Below, one piece after another: positions 12,413 to 63,723 of a stretch of DNA of 64,000 bases. The notes beneath the pieces are model-generated. The model saw only the letters and a list, made by a program, of their open reading frames with translations. It did no database searches and was not told the DNA's origin. Each line of letters opens with the position of its first letter. Positions within the stretch are counted from its first letter, which is position 1. This DNA is from an uncultured Gemmatimonadales bacterium (GTDB taxonomy: Bacteria > Gemmatimonadota > Gemmatimonadetes > Gemmatimonadales > GWC2-71-9): positions 350,214 to 414,213 of the forward strand of contig CAVPYI010000018.1 of NCBI GenBank assembly GCA_963709905.1. Reading direction: 5' to 3'. A program made the position numbers and the translations under genes.

Positions 12413-12572
12413 GAGGCGTCAAGGCGTCAGGCGTTAAGGCGTTAAGGCGTTAAGGCTTCAGGCGACGGGTAACAGGCCTGCCATCAACTGTCGCGACTTG
12501 ATTTCTGGATCCCTGACGCCTGACGCCTGACGCCTCAACGCCTGACGCCTCGACGCCTCGACGCCTTCCGCC
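12413..12572. repeat. inverted 7/8-mer repeat pair (GGCGTCA/GGCGTTAA x~6 at 12413-12466; CTGACGC/CTCGACGC x~8 at 12512-12572)
   Basis: Direct reading; 45-nt spacer. Lies between the lipoprotein gene and pirin. Confidence 0.9.
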
Positions 12573-18767: not shown

Positions 18768-18846
18768 AAGGCGTTGGGCGTTGAGGCGTCAGGCGTCAGA
18801 CCTTGATCCGAGGCTGCCGCCGCAACGCCTGACGCCTCAACGCCTG
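18768..18846. repeat. inverted 7/8-mer repeat pair (GGCGTTG/GGCGTCA x4 at 18768-18799; CAACGCC/TGACGCC x3 at 18823-18846) between the wHTH regulator gene and uppS
   Basis: Direct reading. The right arm contains the regulator stop codon. Same unit family as 12413-12572. Confidence 0.85.
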
Positions 18847-19244
18847 GCCACCTTGATCAGCGCTTCCATGTGATCCAGGTACCGCTCCAGCGCTTTCCTG
18901 CCGGCCGCAGTGAGCCGGTACTCGGTCCGCGGGATCCGGTCCTCGAACGACTTGGTACAGGCGACATACCCCGCGTCCTCGAGCTTGCGGGCATGGACGC
19001 TCAGATTACCGTCGGTGGTTTGGAGCAGCGCCTTGAGTTCGTTGAATGTGAGGCTGTCGTTCACGGCCAGCGCACTCACGATGGCCAGGCGGAGGCGCTC
19101 GTGGATGACCCGATCCAGGTCCGGTGTGAGAGCCGCCCGGCCACCCTTGACGCCCTTGAGCCCCGCGTCACCGGCAGGGCCACCCGTTGCGCCGGTATGG
19201 TTCCCCGCGCCACCGCCCGCGCGGGCCGCGCTCCCCTTACCCAC
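18837..19244 (-). CDS. winged-helix transcriptional regulator (HTH_34/MarR-like)
   Basis: C-terminal 95 aa LDRVIHERLRLAIVSALAVNDSLTFNELKALLQTTDGNLSVHARKLEDAGYV..RTEYRLTAAGRKAL. The Gly-rich N-terminal extension makes the start uncertain. Confidence 0.65.
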   Translation of the reverse strand: MGKGSAARAGGGAGNHTGATGGPAGDAGLKGVKGGRAALTPDLDRVIHERLRLAIVSALAVNDSLTFNELKALLQTTDGNLSVHARKLEDAGYVACTKSFEDRIPRTEYRLTAAGRKALERYLDHMEALIKVARR

Positions 19245-53009: not shown

Positions 53010-53038
53010 TTGACAGGCGTGGTACGGGACCGTAAGAG
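53010..53038 (+). promoter_or_regulatory. candidate sigma-70-type promoter for the riboswitch leader
   Basis: TTGACA (53010-53015), a 17-nt spacer, then TAAGAG (53033-53038). The predicted start lies ~10-20 nt before the aptamer. An 8-bp palindrome GGTGCACC sits ~30 nt upstream (52973-52980). Confidence 0.35.
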
Positions 53039-53057
53039 TGACATTCAAGAAGAGCTT

Positions 53058-53195
53058 TCACCTGGTGAGAAGAGGCAAAACCCGGCGAAAGTCGGGTGAC
53101 GCAAAGCCACGGGTCCTCGCCTCCTCCGCGACGCCTGACGCCGACGCCACGAAGGTCCCGCACGATCGCCGGGCTGCCAACAGGTAGCTCGGCGT
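53058..53195 (+). ncRNA. c-di-GMP-I (GEMM-I)-like riboswitch aptamer; boundaries approximate
   Basis: 53074-53108 reads GGCAAAACCCGGCGAAAGTCGGGTGACGCAAAGCC. That is GGCAAA, a 7-bp stem ACCCGGC/GTCGGGT capped by a GAAA tetraloop, then GACGCAAAGCC, matching the hallmark 5' half of Vc2-type GEMM-I. A 3' AGGTAGC element lies at 53182-53188. Confidence 0.7.
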
Positions 53196-53500
53196 TCGTG
53201 TTGCTGGCGGGGTGGCCAATTCACCCGCAGCACTCAAGCCTCCGTGCTGGCAAACGCGGGAGGTGTCGATGTGCAATCGGCCTGCCGCTTCCGGGCATCT
53301 CCGCTGGCGCCGCAGTCCGGGTGATTCACCTCGTTACCCTGGCGTCGCTGGTGGCATGCGGCGAGAGCTCCGCCCCCAAGCGACTGTGCCTTCGCTTGAG
53401 ACACTACTCGGTGAGCCGGAGCTACACCATCCCCCTGTACCGGCCTGCAGGCTTATCGTTCGACCAGCGCCTCGTCACCCCATAACAACGGGAGGAGGCC

Positions 53501-55183
53501 ATGCGGCCCGATCGCGTTTTCTCCTCGCGCTCCATTCTCCTCATCACCTTCCATCGTTGCTGGCGCCTGGTGCTCGGCGGCCTATTTCTGTACCTCTTCG
53601 CCGCGGCCTGCGGCGGGGGCGATGCCGCGCTCGGCCCGACCAGCTACAACCTCTCCGGCCTGTGGTACTTCGAAGAGACCTTCGCCGACAATGCCGTAGG
53701 GCTCACCTGCAGCGATACAGGAAGGCTGGTCGTAACTCAGAGCGGCCCGACGTTCAGTGCCGCCGGGTTCCAGGAGGGCATGTGCAGCGGGCCCGGGGGG
53801 ACGGTACCGGTTGCGGACAGCTTCCGTATGGTGAACGGTCGGATTGACGGTGCTCGAATCTCCTTCCGCGTTGATCCCTGTCCGTACTCCGGAACGGCCA
53901 TCGGTGCCGCTCCCGACAGCGTCGCCGGAAGCATCGATTGCCGAGTGAGCATCGAGGACGTGAGCCTCCACCTCCAGGGGACGTGGCGGATGCGGCGCCC
54001 ACTGCCACCGCCACCACCACCGATCATCGCGTTGCTCGACCTGAGCCCGCTGGATCTCACAACGGGAAACTTTCAGAGCCCGGGTGTGGCCTTCAATGAC
54101 CAGGGAATGATCCTCGTCGTCTACGACAAAGATCGAGCACTGATCTCCAAGTTCTCCGATGGGAGCACGACGCCGCCCGCCTGGCAGACGCCCGGCATAG
54201 GAGCCGCGAACTACTGGCCAGCCGCACCCGATCACCAGCTGGTAATGAATGCATCGGGTGCCGCGGGACTGGTCTACAAGGTCAGCTCGGATCAGCTGAA
54301 TGAGGACCGGAACCGGTTCGGATTCGCCTATTTCGACGGCGCCGCGTGGCGCTACAATCAAACGCTCGAGGGCGCGATACAGCACCCCTTTTCCGTTGGC
54401 GACATTCGCACGCCCATCGTCGGCATCGACAACAATGGAACGGCGTATGTCGCGTTCAAGAAGGTGGCAAACGGTGCCCCAATCGATGTGCTGGTCCTCG
54501 CCCGGTTCACGGTGGCAGGGTTGCTGGACACGACCGAGTTTTCGGAACCGGTGGGGAATCTGTATCTGTCCGTGAGCGCCAGCGGTCAGGTCATGGTGCT
54601 CAACACCGGCGCCGGATCCAGGACCTTCGATGGCACATCGTGGAGCCCGCTGAAACCCGTGACGGTGCCGGGCGAGGGGCCCGCATTCCTGGCCCTCTCG
54701 AGTTCAGGCAGCGCGGAGGTGGTTACCCTCTACAACGCGATCACGCATTACCACTATGACGGGGCATCCTGGGGACCGGGCGTGCGAATCAACGGCAGCT
54801 TCAGTGCGGGCAACGGAGCCGCCGCAGTCGACGGTGCCGGAAACATCATGGTGGCCTACATGGGACCATCCGGCGGCCCGGAATACCATATTCAGGCCAA
54901 TCTCTACGATGGTACGTCGTGGGGTCCTCCAAAAGACGTCGACAATACGGCTGAGTATGAAGCGAACCCCGCGCTGCTGGTCGATGGCATCGGGAACTTC
55001 GTGGCGCTGTACGGTAGCTACGCAAACTATTTTGCTGGTGCGTCCTGGCACACGCCGACTGTCCTTGAAGGGCAACCCGGCGTCCTGTATCCCGCCGTCG
55101 CCATGAAGGACGATGGGGATTTTGTGGTTATCTCCCCTGCGGGAGGTGGCTTGTACAGCTTTCTCTACACGTTTTCCCCCTGA
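53501..55183 (+). CDS. secreted/lipoprotein of unknown function (560 aa)
   Basis: GGGAGGAGG lies 2 nt before the ATG (GGAGG core 5-6 nt upstream). Leader LVLGGLFLYLFAAACGGG, a poly-Pro linker (RRPLPPPPPPII), then a beta-rich domain with recurring DG.SW/GASW motifs. Confidence 0.6.
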   Translation: MRPDRVFSSRSILLITFHRCWRLVLGGLFLYLFAAACGGGDAALGPTSYNLSGLWYFEETFADNAVGLTCSDTGRLVVTQSGPTFSAAGFQEGMCSGPGGTVPVADSFRMVNGRIDGARISFRVDPCPYSGTAIGAAPDSVAGSIDCRVSIEDVSLHLQGTWRMRRPLPPPPPPIIALLDLSPLDLTTGNFQSPGVAFNDQGMILVVYDKDRALISKFSDGSTTPPAWQTPGIGAANYWPAAPDHQLVMNASGAAGLVYKVSSDQLNEDRNRFGFAYFDGAAWRYNQTLEGAIQHPFSVGDIRTPIVGIDNNGTAYVAFKKVANGAPIDVLVLARFTVAGLLDTTEFSEPVGNLYLSVSASGQVMVLNTGAGSRTFDGTSWSPLKPVTVPGEGPAFLALSSSGSAEVVTLYNAITHYHYDGASWGPGVRINGSFSAGNGAAAVDGAGNIMVAYMGPSGGPEYHIQANLYDGTSWGPPKDVDNTAEYEANPALLVDGIGNFVALYGSYANYFAGASWHTPTVLEGQPGVLYPAVAMKDDGDFVVISPAGGGLYSFLYTFSP

Positions 55184-55722
55184 GCGCGTTCCTCACTCAG
55201 AACGGGCCCGACGTTCGGGCAACTGTCCGCAACCGTGTGCCTCACCGGCTGCGAGGTCTGGAGGACGGGCTACATCAACCGCGCATGGCTGCTCCTCTGG
55301 CCCCAGGAGTTGTAAATCGGGCACCGGGCCAGTGGTCCAACGGCTTCGTGTTCAGCCTCGTCGAATGGGCCACCGCCCCGCGGACAGCCGCAGCCAGCTG
55401 CCGATTGTAGTCGAAGACGTCTTGTGCGTCCTAACGCACATCAACGTGCGACGGCTCTGCTGAAGGGAGCCCGCGGCCGATCGTCACCCTGTCCGGGATC
55501 CCGAGATCCAGCCAGGACGCGGCCATCAGTTGTCCAAGGGCCCGCACCACCAGCCGCGGTGGGTGAATAGGCACGCCGCGGACACCCCAGAGCCCTGACC
55601 TGTGTCCGGGAACTGGGTTACGTCGTCCCCATGCCCTGAGTACCTTGGGTTGGCCGGCCCCGGGTATGTCTGCCCGCCGTTGATCACCGACAGCAAACAA
55701 ACTCCGACGGACCGTCTCACCG

Positions 55723-56793
55723 ATGCGCATCGGACCCGTAGCCGCGCTGGTGCTCGCCATTCCCGCGGCCTGCATGCACTCGGATCCCTTTCCGATCGAT
55801 CCTCCGGTCGCCGACGGGCCGTTCGACCCCAGCCCGCCGATCCGGCTCACGTACAACGCTGGGCAGGACCTCGCCCCAGGCTGGCGCACCGGGAACGCCG
55901 GCCTGCTGTACTCGTTCCAGACCGGCCAGAGCGATCGCGATCTCTGCCTCGGAGTGCTCCCGGAAGGCGGGGGCGCACGGATCCTCGAGAAGTGCTCGCT
56001 CGGCGACCCGGCTCGCGCATCGCGCGACGCTCTGACTGAACCGTCCGAAAGCCCGGCCGGCCGTCTGGCCTGGCTCGAGACCCACCACCCGATCTCACTC
56101 TACACACCGCTCCGCACGGTGCTCAGGCTCGGCACTTTCGCGCGGGCGGATACCGGGGCGGTGCTCCGCGAGTTGCCCTACCTTGCCCCGAGTGGTGAGA
56201 CCTATTCGGTGGTCTCGCACGTCGGCTGGCTCGGACCCGACACCCTGGTCCTCATCGGCGCCGACCTCAGTTACACCCAGCCGCCGGGCTGTCCCTCCTG
56301 CCCGATCGATACCCTGATCGTCGATCCGGAGATCGTCCTGTTCGACCTCACCACGAGCCCCGTTACCGAACTCAATCTCCCCGGAACCCTCCAGGCGACC
56401 TCGGTCTGGCCCGCCGCCGATCGGACCGCCCTGTTCTACACCATGACCGGCGACAGCCGGGTGTTCCGGTTGACCCTGATCGGCGGCGCCGTGACGGTCG
56501 CACATGATTTCGGGACGGGACGAGTCGCGCGCGACGCCCAGGTGCGCGGCAACCAGCTCTGGGCCGTGGTCGACGGGCAGGTGAGCGGCGCGGTCGACCG
56601 CGGGGGACGCCTGACCGTCGTCGATCTCTCCACCGGGCAGGAGACCCTGCTCCCCGAGGCGGCGTACTTCTACAAGCGTCTGGCCGTGGCGCCGTCGGGG
56701 AGTCGGGTCGTGGCCGAGGGCTACGATGCCATCATCGCCGGTCCCGATACGACCGTGGGAACGGTGGCCGACCTGTGGCAGGTCGACCAGTGA
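55723..56793 (+). CDS. probable lipoprotein, beta-propeller-like (TolB-like repeats)
   Basis: 356 aa with leader MRIGPVAALVLAIPAACMHS. The stop overlaps the GTG of the following TonB-dependent receptor gene (GTGA). Confidence 0.55.
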   Translation: MRIGPVAALVLAIPAACMHSDPFPIDPPVADGPFDPSPPIRLTYNAGQDLAPGWRTGNAGLLYSFQTGQSDRDLCLGVLPEGGGARILEKCSLGDPARASRDALTEPSESPAGRLAWLETHHPISLYTPLRTVLRLGTFARADTGAVLRELPYLAPSGETYSVVSHVGWLGPDTLVLIGADLSYTQPPGCPSCPIDTLIVDPEIVLFDLTTSPVTELNLPGTLQATSVWPAADRTALFYTMTGDSRVFRLTLIGGAVTVAHDFGTGRVARDAQVRGNQLWAVVDGQVSGAVDRGGRLTVVDLSTGQETLLPEAAYFYKRLAVAPSGSRVVAEGYDAIIAGPDTTVGTVADLWQVDQ

Positions 56794-59180
56794 CCCGGGT
56801 TTCGTGGTGTCTGGTGGCGGTCCTCGGAACCGGGTTTGCCGGCGGCGCCACGGCTCAGTCGAGCGGCGCCGTCGAAGGCGTGGTTCGTCAGGCGGGGACC
56901 GAGCCCGTGCGGCTGAGCGGGGCGCTGGTGACGGTGGACGGCGGCCGATTCGTGACCAGCACCGACGAGCGCGGCTTCTACCGGGTGCGCGAACTGTCTC
57001 CCGGCTGGCACGTGGTGACCGCCGCGGCGATCGGCTACCGCCCGCAGAGCCGCGACAGCGTTCTGGTCCGGGCCGGCCAGACCACCGCGCTCGACTTCGC
57101 CCTGCAGCCTGACCCGGTAGGGCTCGAGCCGATCGAGGTCATAGCGGCCCGGGTGGACTCCGTCCTCGACCCGCTCGCGGTCACCGACCAGCAGCGCTAC
57201 ACCACTGAGGACCTCCGCCGCCTGCCGGTGTCGACGGTCGAGGAGGCGATCGGGCTTTCCTCCGGTGCCGTGGGAGAGAGCTACCGCGGCGGGCGGCTGG
57301 GTCAGCAGGCGTTCATTCTGGACGGCCTGGGGGTCAAGAATCAGCTCGATGCGTCGAGCGGGTCCCTCGGCGTTCGCGTCCCACCCGATATCCTGGCCGA
57401 GGCATCGCTGATCACCAATGGCTTCTCTGCCCGTTACGGGCAGGCGGTCTCAGCGCTGGTGAATCTTTCCACCCGGGATGGAGGCGATCGCTGGGGTGGC
57501 CGGCTCGCCTACGAGACCGACCGCCCCCTCGGCGGCGGCGCCGATCACGGTCTTGATCGCGCGGTCGTGGGATTCGAAGGCCCGCTCTTCGGCGGGATCA
57601 GCCTCATCGGAGTTGCCGACCTCTCGGCCCGGCTGAATGCCGACGCGGTCAACGCCCCGGCACCGTCGAACCCCCGCGATCCGCGGCACGCCGCCCCCTG
57701 GATCCTGCCGCACAACAGCGCCGAGCAGGCCGACCTCGCCGCCAAGCTCACCATCCCGCTCGGAGCGCGGCAGACGCTGCGTCTCCTTGGCCTGCACTCC
57801 ACCGAGCAGCGGCTGCTGTTCGACCCGGCGTTCAAGTACGATCCCGGGTTCGGTCCGGTCCGCCGGACCACCGGCAAGCTGCTCAACGCGCACCTGCAGC
57901 GGACCTTCCCGGGGCCCGGAATCACCGCAGACCTCAGGATCGGGTATTTCGGACGCGAGTTCATCCGCGGCCCGTCGGCCGAGTCCATCGATTACCGGTT
58001 CGGCGCGTTCACCGGGCAACACCTCGGCATTCTGGCCGAACAAATCGCCCGCGATCAGGATACCGCGCGGGCCCGAAACCCGCTCCCTGGCTACGCCCCG
58101 CCGGGGTTGAGCTCCAACACCCCGTGGGGTGTCCCGGCGTTCTTCCTCGGGGGCGCGTCGCGCGGCGACCTGGCCTGGAACCGGTTCCGCGAGGTCCGCT
58201 CTCGCCTCGACCTCGGCTTTCCGGCGGGGCGGAGCGGCGACTTCTACATCGGCGCCGAGTATTCGGGCCAGCGGGTGCAGACCTTTCAGCGGATTCGCTC
58301 CTACCTGCCCGCCGGCGACTCGGTCCCCCCACCCAGCGCCTCGGATTTCACGCCCTGGGCCGGGGCGCTCTACGCCGAGATGCAGCAGCGGGCAACCGAC
58401 CTGGCCATCACCCTCGGGCTGCGATACGACCAGTTCAGCGGTCGGGACGATCTGCCCGGGCAGGCGGCCCGCACCAGCCGCTCGCTTTCGCCCCGGTTCG
58501 CCGTGAGCACGGTGCTCAAAGGCGCCACGATGGTCGCCAGCTTCGGGAAATTCAGTCAGGCGCCGGATTATCAGTATCTCGCTGATGCCGCATTCGACGA
58601 TACCACCCGCACCGGCCGGTTCCGGCAGGGCAATCCCGACCTCGGGTTTGAGCGGTCCACCCAGTACGAACTCAGCCTCCGGGTGCGGCCGACGGCACAG
58701 ACCAGCCTGCGGGCCAATCTCTACGTCCGCCGCCTCGACGGCCTGGTGGCGTCGGTGCCGCTGGGCGTCAACCCCGACTCGAGCATCTTCGGCAACACCG
58801 ACGCCGGCTCGGTCAAGGGCTTCGAAGTCATTCTCGAGCGGGAGTTCACCCGGGGGTGGGGGGCACGGCTGAGCTACGCGCTCCAGCAAGCCACGGCCCA
58901 TTCATCGGATGCCTACTTCATCCGGCGGGTCATCCGCATCGACCCGGTCACCGGCGATACCATCTTCCCCGGGAAAGTGGAGTTTCCACTGGACTTCGAC
59001 CGCCGGCACTCGCTGATCGCCATCGTGACCGGCTCGGTGCCGGCCGGATTCGGGCCTTCCCTGCTCGGAACGAGACCGCTGGCGGGCATCGACGGCACGG
59101 CGATCCTCCGGGTCAAGTTCGGGCCTGCCGTTCTCGCGAGTCGATGCGGCCGCCGATTCCATTCTCGGATTGCCCAATGA
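56790..59180 (+). CDS. TonB-dependent receptor with N-terminal carboxypeptidase-regulatory-like domain (frame-shifted gene, main part)
   Basis: ORF-track start is 56775. GTG 56790 overlaps the upstream stop and gives signal VTRVSWCLVAVLGTGFAGGATAQS. CarbopepD_reg-like VEGVVR..GALVTVDG..TDERGFYRVRELSPGWHVV is followed by plug motifs (DLRRLPVSTVEEAIGLSSGA) and a beta-barrel. The frame is lost near 59105. Confidence 0.85.
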   Translation: MTRVSWCLVAVLGTGFAGGATAQSSGAVEGVVRQAGTEPVRLSGALVTVDGGRFVTSTDERGFYRVRELSPGWHVVTAAAIGYRPQSRDSVLVRAGQTTALDFALQPDPVGLEPIEVIAARVDSVLDPLAVTDQQRYTTEDLRRLPVSTVEEAIGLSSGAVGESYRGGRLGQQAFILDGLGVKNQLDASSGSLGVRVPPDILAEASLITNGFSARYGQAVSALVNLSTRDGGDRWGGRLAYETDRPLGGGADHGLDRAVVGFEGPLFGGISLIGVADLSARLNADAVNAPAPSNPRDPRHAAPWILPHNSAEQADLAAKLTIPLGARQTLRLLGLHSTEQRLLFDPAFKYDPGFGPVRRTTGKLLNAHLQRTFPGPGITADLRIGYFGREFIRGPSAESIDYRFGAFTGQHLGILAEQIARDQDTARARNPLPGYAPPGLSSNTPWGVPAFFLGGASRGDLAWNRFREVRSRLDLGFPAGRSGDFYIGAEYSGQRVQTFQRIRSYLPAGDSVPPPSASDFTPWAGALYAEMQQRATDLAITLGLRYDQFSGRDDLPGQAARTSRSLSPRFAVSTVLKGATMVASFGKFSQAPDYQYLADAAFDDTTRTGRFRQGNPDLGFERSTQYELSLRVRPTAQTSLRANLYVRRLDGLVASVPLGVNPDSSIFGNTDAGSVKGFEVILEREFTRGWGARLSYALQQATAHSSDAYFIRRVIRIDPVTGDTIFPGKVEFPLDFDRRHSLIAIVTGSVPAGFGPSLLGTRPLAGIDGTAILRVKFGPAVLASRCGRRFHSRIAQ

Positions 59181-59233
59181 ATCGCGACTGCCGTCGAGCT
59201 ATACGCTGGATCTGCTGATCCGCCGTCCGCTGA

Positions 59234-59569
59234 AGGTCGGCACAATGGGGAGGCAGCCTGTACGTCGATGTGCGCAACGTGCTCAACCGTCGCAACGTCA
59301 TCGCGGTGCGCCGGGATACCGGCACCGAGACCCTGCCCCCCACGACGATCCAGCAACTGGCCACCGCCGCGTACGCGGCTGATCCAGCGCCGATCCCGTA
59401 CGAGTCTCCGCGCTATCGCGCCTGGGCGGACCAGGATGCCAATGGGGTACTGGAGGGACCGGGTGAACTGATGCCGCTCTTCCTGGCCGCGGCACGGGAC
59501 TTCGCCCAGCCGATCTTCTTCTACGGGCCACCGCGACTGTTCCGGCTGGGGGTCGAGTTCGAGTTCTAG
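59234..59569 (+). CDS. C-terminal barrel strands of the TonB-dependent receptor (third reading frame; ORF-track piece 59270-59569)
   Basis: ..GGSLYVDVRNVLNRRNVIAVRRDTG...PRLFRLGVEFEF-stop is a canonical TBDR C-terminus ending in Phe. The middle piece (LPFSRVDAAADSILGLPNESRLPSSYTLDLLIRRPLKVG) lies in a second frame at ~59110-59250. Confidence 0.75.
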   Translation, partial: RSAQWGGSLYVDVRNVLNRRNVIAVRRDTGTETLPPTTIQQLATAAYAADPAPIPYESPRYRAWADQDANGVLEGPGELMPLFLAAARDFAQPIFFYGPPRLFRLGVEFEF

Positions 59570-63694: not shown

Positions 63695-63723
63695 TTGACA
63701 GGCGGTGTCCCGGGAGCTAACTG
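63695..63723 (+). promoter_or_regulatory. candidate sigma-70-type promoter for the sigma-factor gene
   Basis: TTGACA (63695-63700), a 17-nt spacer, then TAACTG (63718-63723). It shares the extended -35 context CTTGACAGGCG with the 53010 promoter. Confidence 0.3.

Follow-up and report, generated by a model that had tools for sequence, protein, structure and literature searches.

The closest described relatives of the RNA element considered here are the GEMM-I riboswitches (RF01051, c-di-GMP-I), which respond to cyclic di-GMP (c-di-GMP); the element itself lies upstream of a lipoprotein gene in a 64,000-nt stretch of DNA from an uncultured Gemmatimonadales bacterium (contig CAVPYI010000018.1, the whole stretch being called the window hereafter). 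The first hairpin of GEMM aptamers is defined by 2-bp and ~6-bp stems, a 3-nt internal loop and a GNRA cap, the loop being “almost always GNRA”, and the linker to the second hairpin (P2) is “virtually always AAA” (PMC1950547). An 11-nt receptor for the GAAA tetraloop is found in about half of GEMMs and is typical, not defining. The ligand-contacting residues G20, A47 and C92 of the Vc2 aptamer and its interhelical C:G pair are referred to as named in PMC4744006 and PMC6140456, and an adenine at the G20 equivalent is the mark of aptamers binding cyclic GMP-AMP (cGAMP), called GEMM-Ib (PMC6140456). In 78 of 322 GEMMs a terminator overlaps P2, and for this type the ligand was predicted to raise expression; the associated genes were summarized as “environment, membranes, motility” (PMC1950547).

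An initial annotation, made from the sequence letters, had proposed a GEMM-I-like riboswitch at 53010-53500 of the window, and the covariance-model scan agrees with it. RF01051 matches 53064-53181 (+) along model positions 1-87 of 87 with 47.8 bits, exceeding the gathering threshold (GA) of 35 (Rfam 15; E 2.9e-6 for the whole 64-kb window against 4227 Rfam families). The sole other family above threshold in the window is the IS3 frameshift pseudoknot (ALIL), and RF01786, suggested as a control in the initial annotation, is absent from both the standard and the permissive Rfam scans of the window. The strings on which the proposal was built, namely the promoter, GGCAAAACCCGGCGAAAGTCGGGTGACGCAAAGCC, three GACGCC units, AGGTAGC and the Shine-Dalgarno (SD) sequence with its ATG, are all located where it had placed them, and the aptamer lies upstream of the envelope genes and on their strand, as a 5' regulatory element should. 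The window copy matches all upper-case consensus nucleotides of RF01051. On the same copy the related family RF03167 (c-di-GMP-I-GGC) scores 44.5 bits in the permissive scan, under its GA of 59, and the hallmark of that family, a G at the first linker position, is absent: the window reads GCAAAGCC and the RF03167 consensus GCGAAGCC. Since the G20 equivalent is a G and GCAAAGCC agrees with the RF01051 consensus, the sequence features are canonical for the c-di-GMP type. Judged by these features, the window element is a genuine class I c-di-GMP riboswitch, and its aptamer would be expected to bind c-di-GMP. The window was also compared with X1, an independent short-read assembly of the same organism, and with X2, a related strain. 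The sequence 53101-53698 is identical in X1, and the X2 aptamer equals that of the window except for one compatible A-to-G change (A-U to G·U at 53080), X2 differing elsewhere. The features of the element are as follows.

53010-53038, forward strand: promoter-like element (TTGACA at 53010-15, a 17-nt spacer with GGTAC, TAAGAG at 53033-38)
53060-53185, forward strand: complete aptamer including the closing helix P1 (RF01051 alignment and direct reading of the sequence)
53060-64 with 53181-85, forward strand: closing helix P1, ACCUG with CAGGU (read from the sequence; P1 lies outside the RF01051 model)
53075-53102, forward strand: first hairpin, the P1 of Rfam (cmscan alignment)
53105-53175, forward strand: extended second hairpin P2, 71 nt (cmscan alignment, subfamily alignment, pair counts)
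53167-53204, forward strand: intrinsic-terminator-like hairpin and tail, the stem-loop occupying 53167-53194 (terminator scan)

The segment GGCAAAACCCGGCGAAAGTCGGGTGACGCAAAGCC (53074-53108) makes up the 5' part of the aptamer, including a 7-bp stem capped by GAAA. The first hairpin is built of a 2-bp base (GC/GC), a 3x3 internal loop (AAA/GAC), the 7-bp stem (53080-86 with 53091-97, one pair being G·U) and the GAAA loop (53087-90), i.e., it has the two stems, the 3-nt internal loop and the GNRA cap by which GEMM-I first hairpins are defined. The AAA linker joining the two hairpins is present as A53103-A53105. The alignment alone maps G53074, A53103 and C53177 to G20, A47 and C92 of Vc2, and C53100 and G53168 to the interhelical C:G pair; the adenine that marks GEMM-Ib is not found, the window having G53074. 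An AGGTAGC element follows at 53182-88. The base of P2 pairs AGCC-A-CGGGUC with GAU-CG-CCGGGCU (53105-15/53164-75), and all 10 of the 10 modelled pairs formed with the conserved 3' strand (GacAGCcggGcU) are standard in the window. Above the base, an internal loop of CUCGCC (53116-21) facing CCCGCAC (53157-63) is followed by a distal helix of UCCUCCGCGACGCC (53122-35) with GACGCCACGAAGGU (53143-56) and by a terminal loop UGACGCC (53136-42). The P2 insert is therefore large, as seen in the cmscan alignment, with 43 nt in the window vs 13 nt in the RF01051 model. The 11-nt GAAA tetraloop receptor is missing, since CCUC...ACG stands in place of the model CUAAG...AUG.

The aptamer is followed at once by a structure that can compete with it. 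The hairpin at 53167-53194 consists of CGCCGGGCUGCC (53167-78), the loop AACA and GGUAGCUCGGCG (53183-94), i.e., 12 bp of which 9 are G-C, and runs into the tail UUCGUGUUGC. The P2 3' strand serves as the 5' arm of the hairpin, and most of the P1 3' strand is included in the 3' arm, so that the platform competes with the aptamer from the 5' position by overlapping both P2 and P1, as in GEMM-I. When 53056-53210 is folded without constraint, the minimum free energy (MFE) structure has the terminator hairpin (-72.2 kcal/mol), whereas the aptamer-constrained fold reaches -46.3. The alternative terminator for which the initial annotation had suggested folding the leader is thus present at 53167-53194. 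Its ~300-nt expression platform shrinks to ~40 nt holding this 12-bp terminator, the rest being leader.

Because the terminator fold is the MFE structure, termination is taken as the default state. It is proposed that the transcript begins near 53045 from TTGACA-N17-TAAGAG and opens with the aptamer (53060-53185), which would fold co-transcriptionally and bind c-di-GMP. Binding would lock P2 (53105-15/53164-75) and P1 (53060-64/53181-85). In the ligand-free RNA, the P2 3' strand CGCCGGGCUGCC would instead pair with GGUAGCUCGGCG, and the hairpin with UUCGUGUUGC would stop transcription near 53200. As the ligand-locked P2 withholds the 5' arm of the terminator, c-di-GMP would turn expression ON by letting transcription continue into the long leader and then into 53501-55183, which encodes a lipoprotein with a lectin-like β-propeller; two further envelope genes may share the read-through transcript. 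The ON polarity, the start site and the reach of the transcript are inferred. To the explanation as a whole, a c-di-GMP ON riboswitch with a terminator blocked by the ligand and a lipoprotein gene downstream, we assign a probability of about 0.75.

The unusual P2 arm is not confined to this locus. Mapping of metagenome contigs showed 53100-53136 at 6-10x the local depth, attached to a wide variety of first hairpins. Exact copies of the 24-mer GCAAAGCCACGGGTCCTCGCCTCC were found in at least 118 stretches from species-representative genomes, always within a GEMM-I aptamer; the carriers among the matches listed are mostly Gemmatimonadales, Thermoanaerobaculia and Woeseiaceae or other Gammaproteobacteria, and Actinomycetota are represented by a single metagenome-assembled genome. 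A second scan, which does not presuppose the conserved strand, was anchored on the flanks only (CGCAAAGCCAC, N35-65, CGCCGRGCYGCC) and found at least 127 distinct P2 domains, ~95% of which start with GGGUCCUCG followed by (C/U)(C/U)UCCUCC. Both scans together give more than 230 distinct aptamers, as a lower bound, in Gemmatimonadales, Thermoanaerobaculia and Woeseiaceae. The near-invariant strand of this subfamily reads GGGUCCUCGC(C/U)UCCUCC, and a strand of 24-37 nt is identical across the three lineages. The length of ~70 nt first noted for the second hairpin is accordingly right (71 nt), but it is the mark of a large subfamily and not a local oddity.

Pairing was assessed in an alignment of 140 subfamily members. 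The first-hairpin stem shows compensatory changes at 6 of 6 pairs (e.g., columns 36-47 with CG 79 and UA 49). The P2 base helix (columns 58-68/134-145) is 93.9% paired and nearly invariant, hence without covariation. The distal helix, UCCUCCGCGACGCC with GACGCCACGAAGGA, is 92.6% paired and is compensated at columns 86-114 (CG 98, AU 20) and 91-111 (CG 79, AU 7, UA 7). It holds four conserved A·C mismatches, one of which is reversed in a sub-type, with A·C in place of C·A. Another register of the distal helix, given by RNAalifold (columns 82-86/111-115), was rejected, as it has fewer pairs and 67% of cells paired vs 92.6%. Where the loops of classic GEMMs are almost always GNRA, the first-hairpin loops of the subfamily are GAAA in 71 members, CAAA in 47, AAAA in 8 and UAAA in 7, and an internal loop of CUCGC(C/U) facing (C)CC(C/U)A(A/C) replaces the 11-nt receptor. 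In the middle of the 3x3 loop, columns 32/52 (window 53078/53099) are A·A in 72 members vs C·C in 35 or C·U in 14, a non-Watson-Crick covariation which splits Gemmatimonadales-type from Woeseiaceae-type aptamers.

The three GACGCC units of the window (53130-35, 53137-42 and 53143-48) had been equated with repeats at 12.5 kb and 18.8 kb. This identity is not shown: two of the units make up the distal P2 helix that is conserved in the subfamily, and the third is part of the loop. The GACGCCT-type heptamer arrays are themselves real, with five clustered GACGCC at ~12.5 kb (12515-12570) and inverted GGCGTC/GACGCC groups at ~18.8 kb (18775-18850), and share with the distal helix a hexamer and no other link.

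Members of the subfamily score 40-62 bits with RF01051, or 59-75 bits with RF03167 despite having A47; the RF03167 threshold was passed by 11 of the 20 members scanned. As they pass Rfam thresholds, they would receive c-di-GMP-I-type labels in any Rfam-based pipeline. Literature searches for a description of this aptamer branch found none, and a large GEMM-I branch with a distinctive conserved arm has apparently not been described before. On several contigs (loci L142, L147, L150, L160, L161, L202, L036 and L116) two subfamily riboswitches stand within 0.6-2 kb, each preceding its own small secreted or lipoprotein gene, which suggests arrays of separately switched genes.

The same data raise the question of the ligand. 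At column 27, the equivalent of G20, 16 of the 140 members have A, 4 have U and 3 have C, and the A-at-20 members are candidates for a cGAMP-type or dual specificity inside the subfamily. If the altered P2 and the relaxed tetraloop had changed the pocket, the window aptamer might likewise respond to a different ligand, e.g., 3',3'-cGAMP as in GEMM-Ib; the A at this position is the cGAMP-defining change (PMC6140456), and many members exceed the RF03167 threshold. However, the equivalents of G20, A47 and C92 in the window copy are all canonical, the copy fails RF03167 and lacks its G at 47, and the changes typical of the subfamily are peripheral, located in P2 and far from the pocket in the secondary structure. 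Another ligand is therefore considered quite improbable for the window element, and c-di-GMP remains the preferred one.

The promoter suggested in the initial annotation (TTGACA-17-TAAGAG) has gained comparative backing. Of 90 regions upstream of high-GC relatives, 68 contain the pattern TTGAC-N16-19-TA, vs 0.6 in shuffles, and among these 68 the spacer is 17 nt in 59 and has GTAC in 34, as in the window. The form TTGACA-N6-GTAC-N7-TA is found only twice in the window, here and, with one mismatch, at 63695-63723, none being expected. The predicted transcription start is near 53045. A strict sigma-70 scan does not call the element at 53010-53038, which has no T at position 6 of the -10 hexamer. 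The distance from the -10-like element to the G20-equivalent base is 41 nt in the window vs a mode of 27-29 nt in relatives, which accords with the longer 5' part of the window aptamer. Promoters of the Gemmatimonadales type (L009-L126; window 53010 and 63695) read CTTGACAG, 4-5 nt, GGTACC, 6-8 nt and a TAACTC-like element, with GTAC in the middle of the 17-nt spacer and a -10 often without the final T; this form is either a lineage-specific housekeeping promoter or a regulator site. Woeseiaceae-type loci (L016-L018, L020, L032, L035, L042, L043, L047, L052) have a common upstream motif of ~21 nt, TAAGTACATCCCAGAATTGAC, ending in a -35-like TTGAC ~40-43 nt 5' of the aptamer core, and its appearance suggests either a shared activator site or a special promoter of the whole riboswitch regulon.

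Several features of the window weigh against a working ON riboswitch. The P1 register is non-consensus, the distance to the first hairpin being 10 nt and not 6, and the P1 pairs of the window are flagged as non-canonical by the RF03167 model. In the distal part of P2 a U·U mismatch takes the place of the U-A seen in relatives, and the U tract of the terminator is broken (5 U in 10 nt). After the terminator there remain ~300 nt of unexplained leader, which puts the locus in the top ~5% of the subfamily: among 200 members surveyed roughly, the start codon lies a median of 54 nt beyond the aptamer (95th percentile 311), vs ~323 nt here. Some of these features might be read as signs of a decaying relic, i.e., an aptamer which controls nothing while gene 1 is driven by a promoter within the long leader. 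Such a reading would account for the unusual length of the leader, the non-consensus P1, the U·U mismatch together with the third GACGCC unit in the loop, and a RF01051 score at the low end of the subfamily range of 40-62 bits. The score nevertheless exceeds the threshold by 13 bits, an intact promoter, aptamer core and terminator follow one another at the correct spacing, and the sigma-70 scan found no sigma-70-like promoter in 53200-53500. The X2 aptamer is, moreover, unchanged save for the one compatible A-to-G, though X2 differs elsewhere. Decay thus appears highly unlikely, and a functional terminator-type switch is retained as the explanation.

Comparison across the subfamily indicates two kinds of read-out. 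In 54 of 102 loci from high-GC lineages, a stem overlapping the P2 3' strand is followed by a U-rich tail. Such a terminator is found in 2 of 127 low-GC, Woeseiaceae-type loci, where an SD and start codon lie within 70 nt of the aptamer in 94 of 127. On this evidence the window element belongs with the high-GC lineages to the terminator type. The conserved strand CCUCCUCC is complementary to GGAGG-type SDs, that of gene 1 included, and this complementarity may be relevant in Woeseiaceae-type members. It could be argued that the output is mainly translational in the window too, with GCCUCCUCC (53119-27) acting as an anti-SD on the gene 1 SD GGAGGAGGC (53491-99) that is freed by the ligand. The two are a perfect 9-nt complement, and the near absence of terminators and the close start codons of the Woeseiaceae-type members make some SD-directed mechanism likely there. 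In the window, however, the sites are ~370 nt apart with a strong terminator between them, and the MFE structure of the whole leader leaves GCCUCCUCC and GGAGGAGGC unpaired with each other. The match itself carries little weight, as any SD complements CCUCC, and the CU-rich strand is equally conserved in terminator-bearing members, i.e., its conservation is independent of the SD. A mainly translational output is therefore regarded as unlikely for this locus, and transcription termination as its probable read-out.

The conserved arm invites a further proposal, which we put forward only tentatively and consider less likely than not: that it defines a distinct GEMM-I subclass, spread over at least three phyla, with a built-in bistable module working by register slipping. 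The P2 5' strand contains the near-repeats UCCUCG (53114-19) and UCCUCCG (53122-28), and the 3' strand CG-A-AGGA(CCC) can pair with either. The register on the second repeat fits the Rfam P2. The register on the first (GGGUCCUCG with CGAAGGACCC) excludes P2 and is present together with the terminator in the MFE structure of the window. The alternative register would hold the P2 5' strand and leave the 3' strand free for the terminator (or for SD control in Woeseiaceae), and the conserved A·C mismatches would serve to weaken the distal helix so that it can slip, or to make it pH-sensitive. Alternatively, the C-rich loop of such a subclass might be a new receptor for NAAA loops. The variation within the subfamily lends the proposal thin support. 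The aptamer register is favoured by the change of C·A to U-A or C-G at position 16, opposite A10', and in the CCC of the 3' strand C-to-U changes predominate. Among the seven G3-to-A variants, two carry a rare GGAUCC restoring the alternative register and five carry GAU restoring the aptamer register; a covariation test on these gives p ~0.03 by rough estimate, which does not settle the matter for a 5' strand that is almost invariant and with only seven variants.

Downstream of the terminator, the following features are found.

53205-53489, forward strand: long leader (no Rfam family match, no related DNA found)
53321-53485, forward strand: candidate small open reading frame (ORF) with GTG start, 54 codons and a lipobox-like LVAC, in the same frame as gene 1
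53490-98 and 53501-55183, forward strand: SD GGGAGGAGG and gene 1, 560 aa (signal peptide and lipobox, AlphaFold, Foldseek)
55723-56793, forward strand: gene 2, lipoprotein-like, 356 aa (Pfam and NCBIfam searches, sequence of P0011)
56775 to ~59569, forward strand: gene 3, CarboxypepD_reg domain and TonB-dependent receptor (Pfam and NCBIfam matches)

A permissive Rfam scan of the leader for a second RNA element gave chance-level matches only (Atu_Ti3 with E 0.32, a CRISPR repeat, a lncRNA), and blastn of the leader against 238 related loci gave no match. The composition of the small ORF is coding-like, with G+C by codon position of 0.59/0.50/0.81 and the top codon score of the six frames, and coding potential in that frame, by both measures, runs from ~53290 to the TAA at 53483-85. 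The ORF 53321-53485 has no SD, has no homologue in the 238 related loci (blastn) and is not called by gene callers, and X2 alters its GTG start and adds one base just upstream; that it is a real lipoprotein-like gene is doubtful. An ATG at 53269 with a good SD (GGGAGG) was rejected, as its frame has a poor codon score and enters gene 1 out of frame. Assembly indels were likewise rejected as the cause of the long leader, or of the 540-nt gap described below, since short-read contigs match the window at both. Within the small ORF, GGCGTCGC (53343-53350) is exactly complementary to GCGACGCC, a part of the P2 5' strand (53128-35). The MFE structure of the whole leader employs long-range pairs of this kind, for which chance is sufficient given the number of possible 8-mers.

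The gene 1 product carries a signal peptide and lipobox (FAAAC) that align with those of its homologue P0004. In the AlphaFold model, residues 175-560 form a β-propeller, mostly with pLDDT >80, and the N-terminal ~170 aa are poorly modelled. Foldseek ranks the seven-bladed Photorhabdus lectins PHL/PLL first (E 2.7e-11, TMt 0.65-0.67) and sialidase-type propellers next; a search of the protein against Pfam gave no match. Gene 1 is thus modelled as a lipoprotein with a lectin-like seven-bladed β-propeller. Its nearest homologues, P0002-P0004 (42-57% identity), are on unrelated contigs, where no GEMM-I is found. The genes that follow ~100 subfamily members mostly encode lipoproteins and secreted proteins, and the consensus N-terminus of the products, M..L..GC (100 members), reads as a lipobox. 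The families include β-helix, NosD, BNR, FG-GAP, RCC1, subtilase, epoxide hydrolase and multihaem cytochromes, in agreement both with gene 1 and with the published GEMM associations.

The initial annotation had also proposed a regulon of three genes. Three co-oriented envelope genes are indeed present, but co-regulation of genes 2 and 3 is uncertain because gene 1 is followed by a strain-variable spacer of 540 nt (55184-55722). The spacer is real, since short-read contigs agree with it, and has no convincing ORF on the forward strand; in X2, 5 nt stand in place of 123 nt of it (55283-55405). After the gene 1 stop codon there is a G+C-rich hairpin (GCCCGACGUUCGGGC) that lacks a U tract. In gene 3, the two frame changes at 59100-59250 are single-base insertions in the window assembly: in the X1 and X2 contigs alike, one base is missing near 59113/59118 and another near 59241/59243, and the C-terminal frame ends in a typical ...RLGVEFEF. 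The receptor gene is probably intact and the window assembly affected by indel errors. No GGDEF motif turned up in a motif grep of the 64-kb window, a result of little weight. No RNA-seq run containing the stretch was found.

If the switch acts as proposed, a lectin-like β-propeller lipoprotein would be under direct c-di-GMP control, which fits the usual role of this messenger in surface and attachment functions. The element itself would be a fairly ordinary terminator-type ON riboswitch, belonging to the large, little-described branch with the conserved arm. Gemmatimonadales, Thermoanaerobaculia and Woeseiaceae appear to run large c-di-GMP riboswitch regulons of lipoproteins, and a branch with two read-outs offers a good natural system for learning how one aptamer fold is wired to different platforms.

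Among known systems, the c-di-GMP-I-GGC family (RF03167) has the same overall fold, and the start of its P2 loop, GGguC..uccuu, resembles the subfamily strand. It differs from the window copy at the position where the two consensuses part (GCAAAGCC vs GCGAAGCC), the window having A and not G, in line with the score of 44.5 bits below the GA of 59. We take the “GGC” of its name to denote pocket positions 20/47/92. The Vc2 and Vc1 aptamers of Vibrio cholerae have a near-identical first hairpin, GGCAAA..CGAAAG..GACGCAAAGCC, and their ligand-contact nucleotides and interhelical C:G pair have equivalents in the window (PMC4744006, PMC11705072). Vc2, however, has a canonical tetraloop receptor and a short P2 and is an OFF switch at tfoY (bioRxiv 10.1101/617340), whereas the design of the window element predicts an ON switch. 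Bc1 of Bacillus thuringiensis also combines a class I aptamer with an unusually long stretch before the regulated gene; that stretch is described there as holding two typical terminators 28 bp apart, whereas the window has one convincing terminator, which overlaps the aptamer (PMC11218506). The likeness is greatest to GEMMs with a P2-overlapping terminator (RF01051; Weinberg et al. 2007, PMC1950547, Fig. 2B type), which share the two-hairpin aptamer with GAAA cap and AAA linker, the G20/A47/C92-type pocket, a terminator whose 5' arm is the 3' side of P2 with a ligand predicted to raise expression, and the control of outer-membrane proteins and lipoproteins. Compared with this type, the window element has a P2 of 71 nt vs ~40, a C-rich loop (CUCGCC/CCCGCAC) for the 11-nt receptor CUAAG...AUG, an added distal helix of 14 nt per strand with A·C mismatches, a shifted P1 register and a leader of ~300 nt after the terminator.

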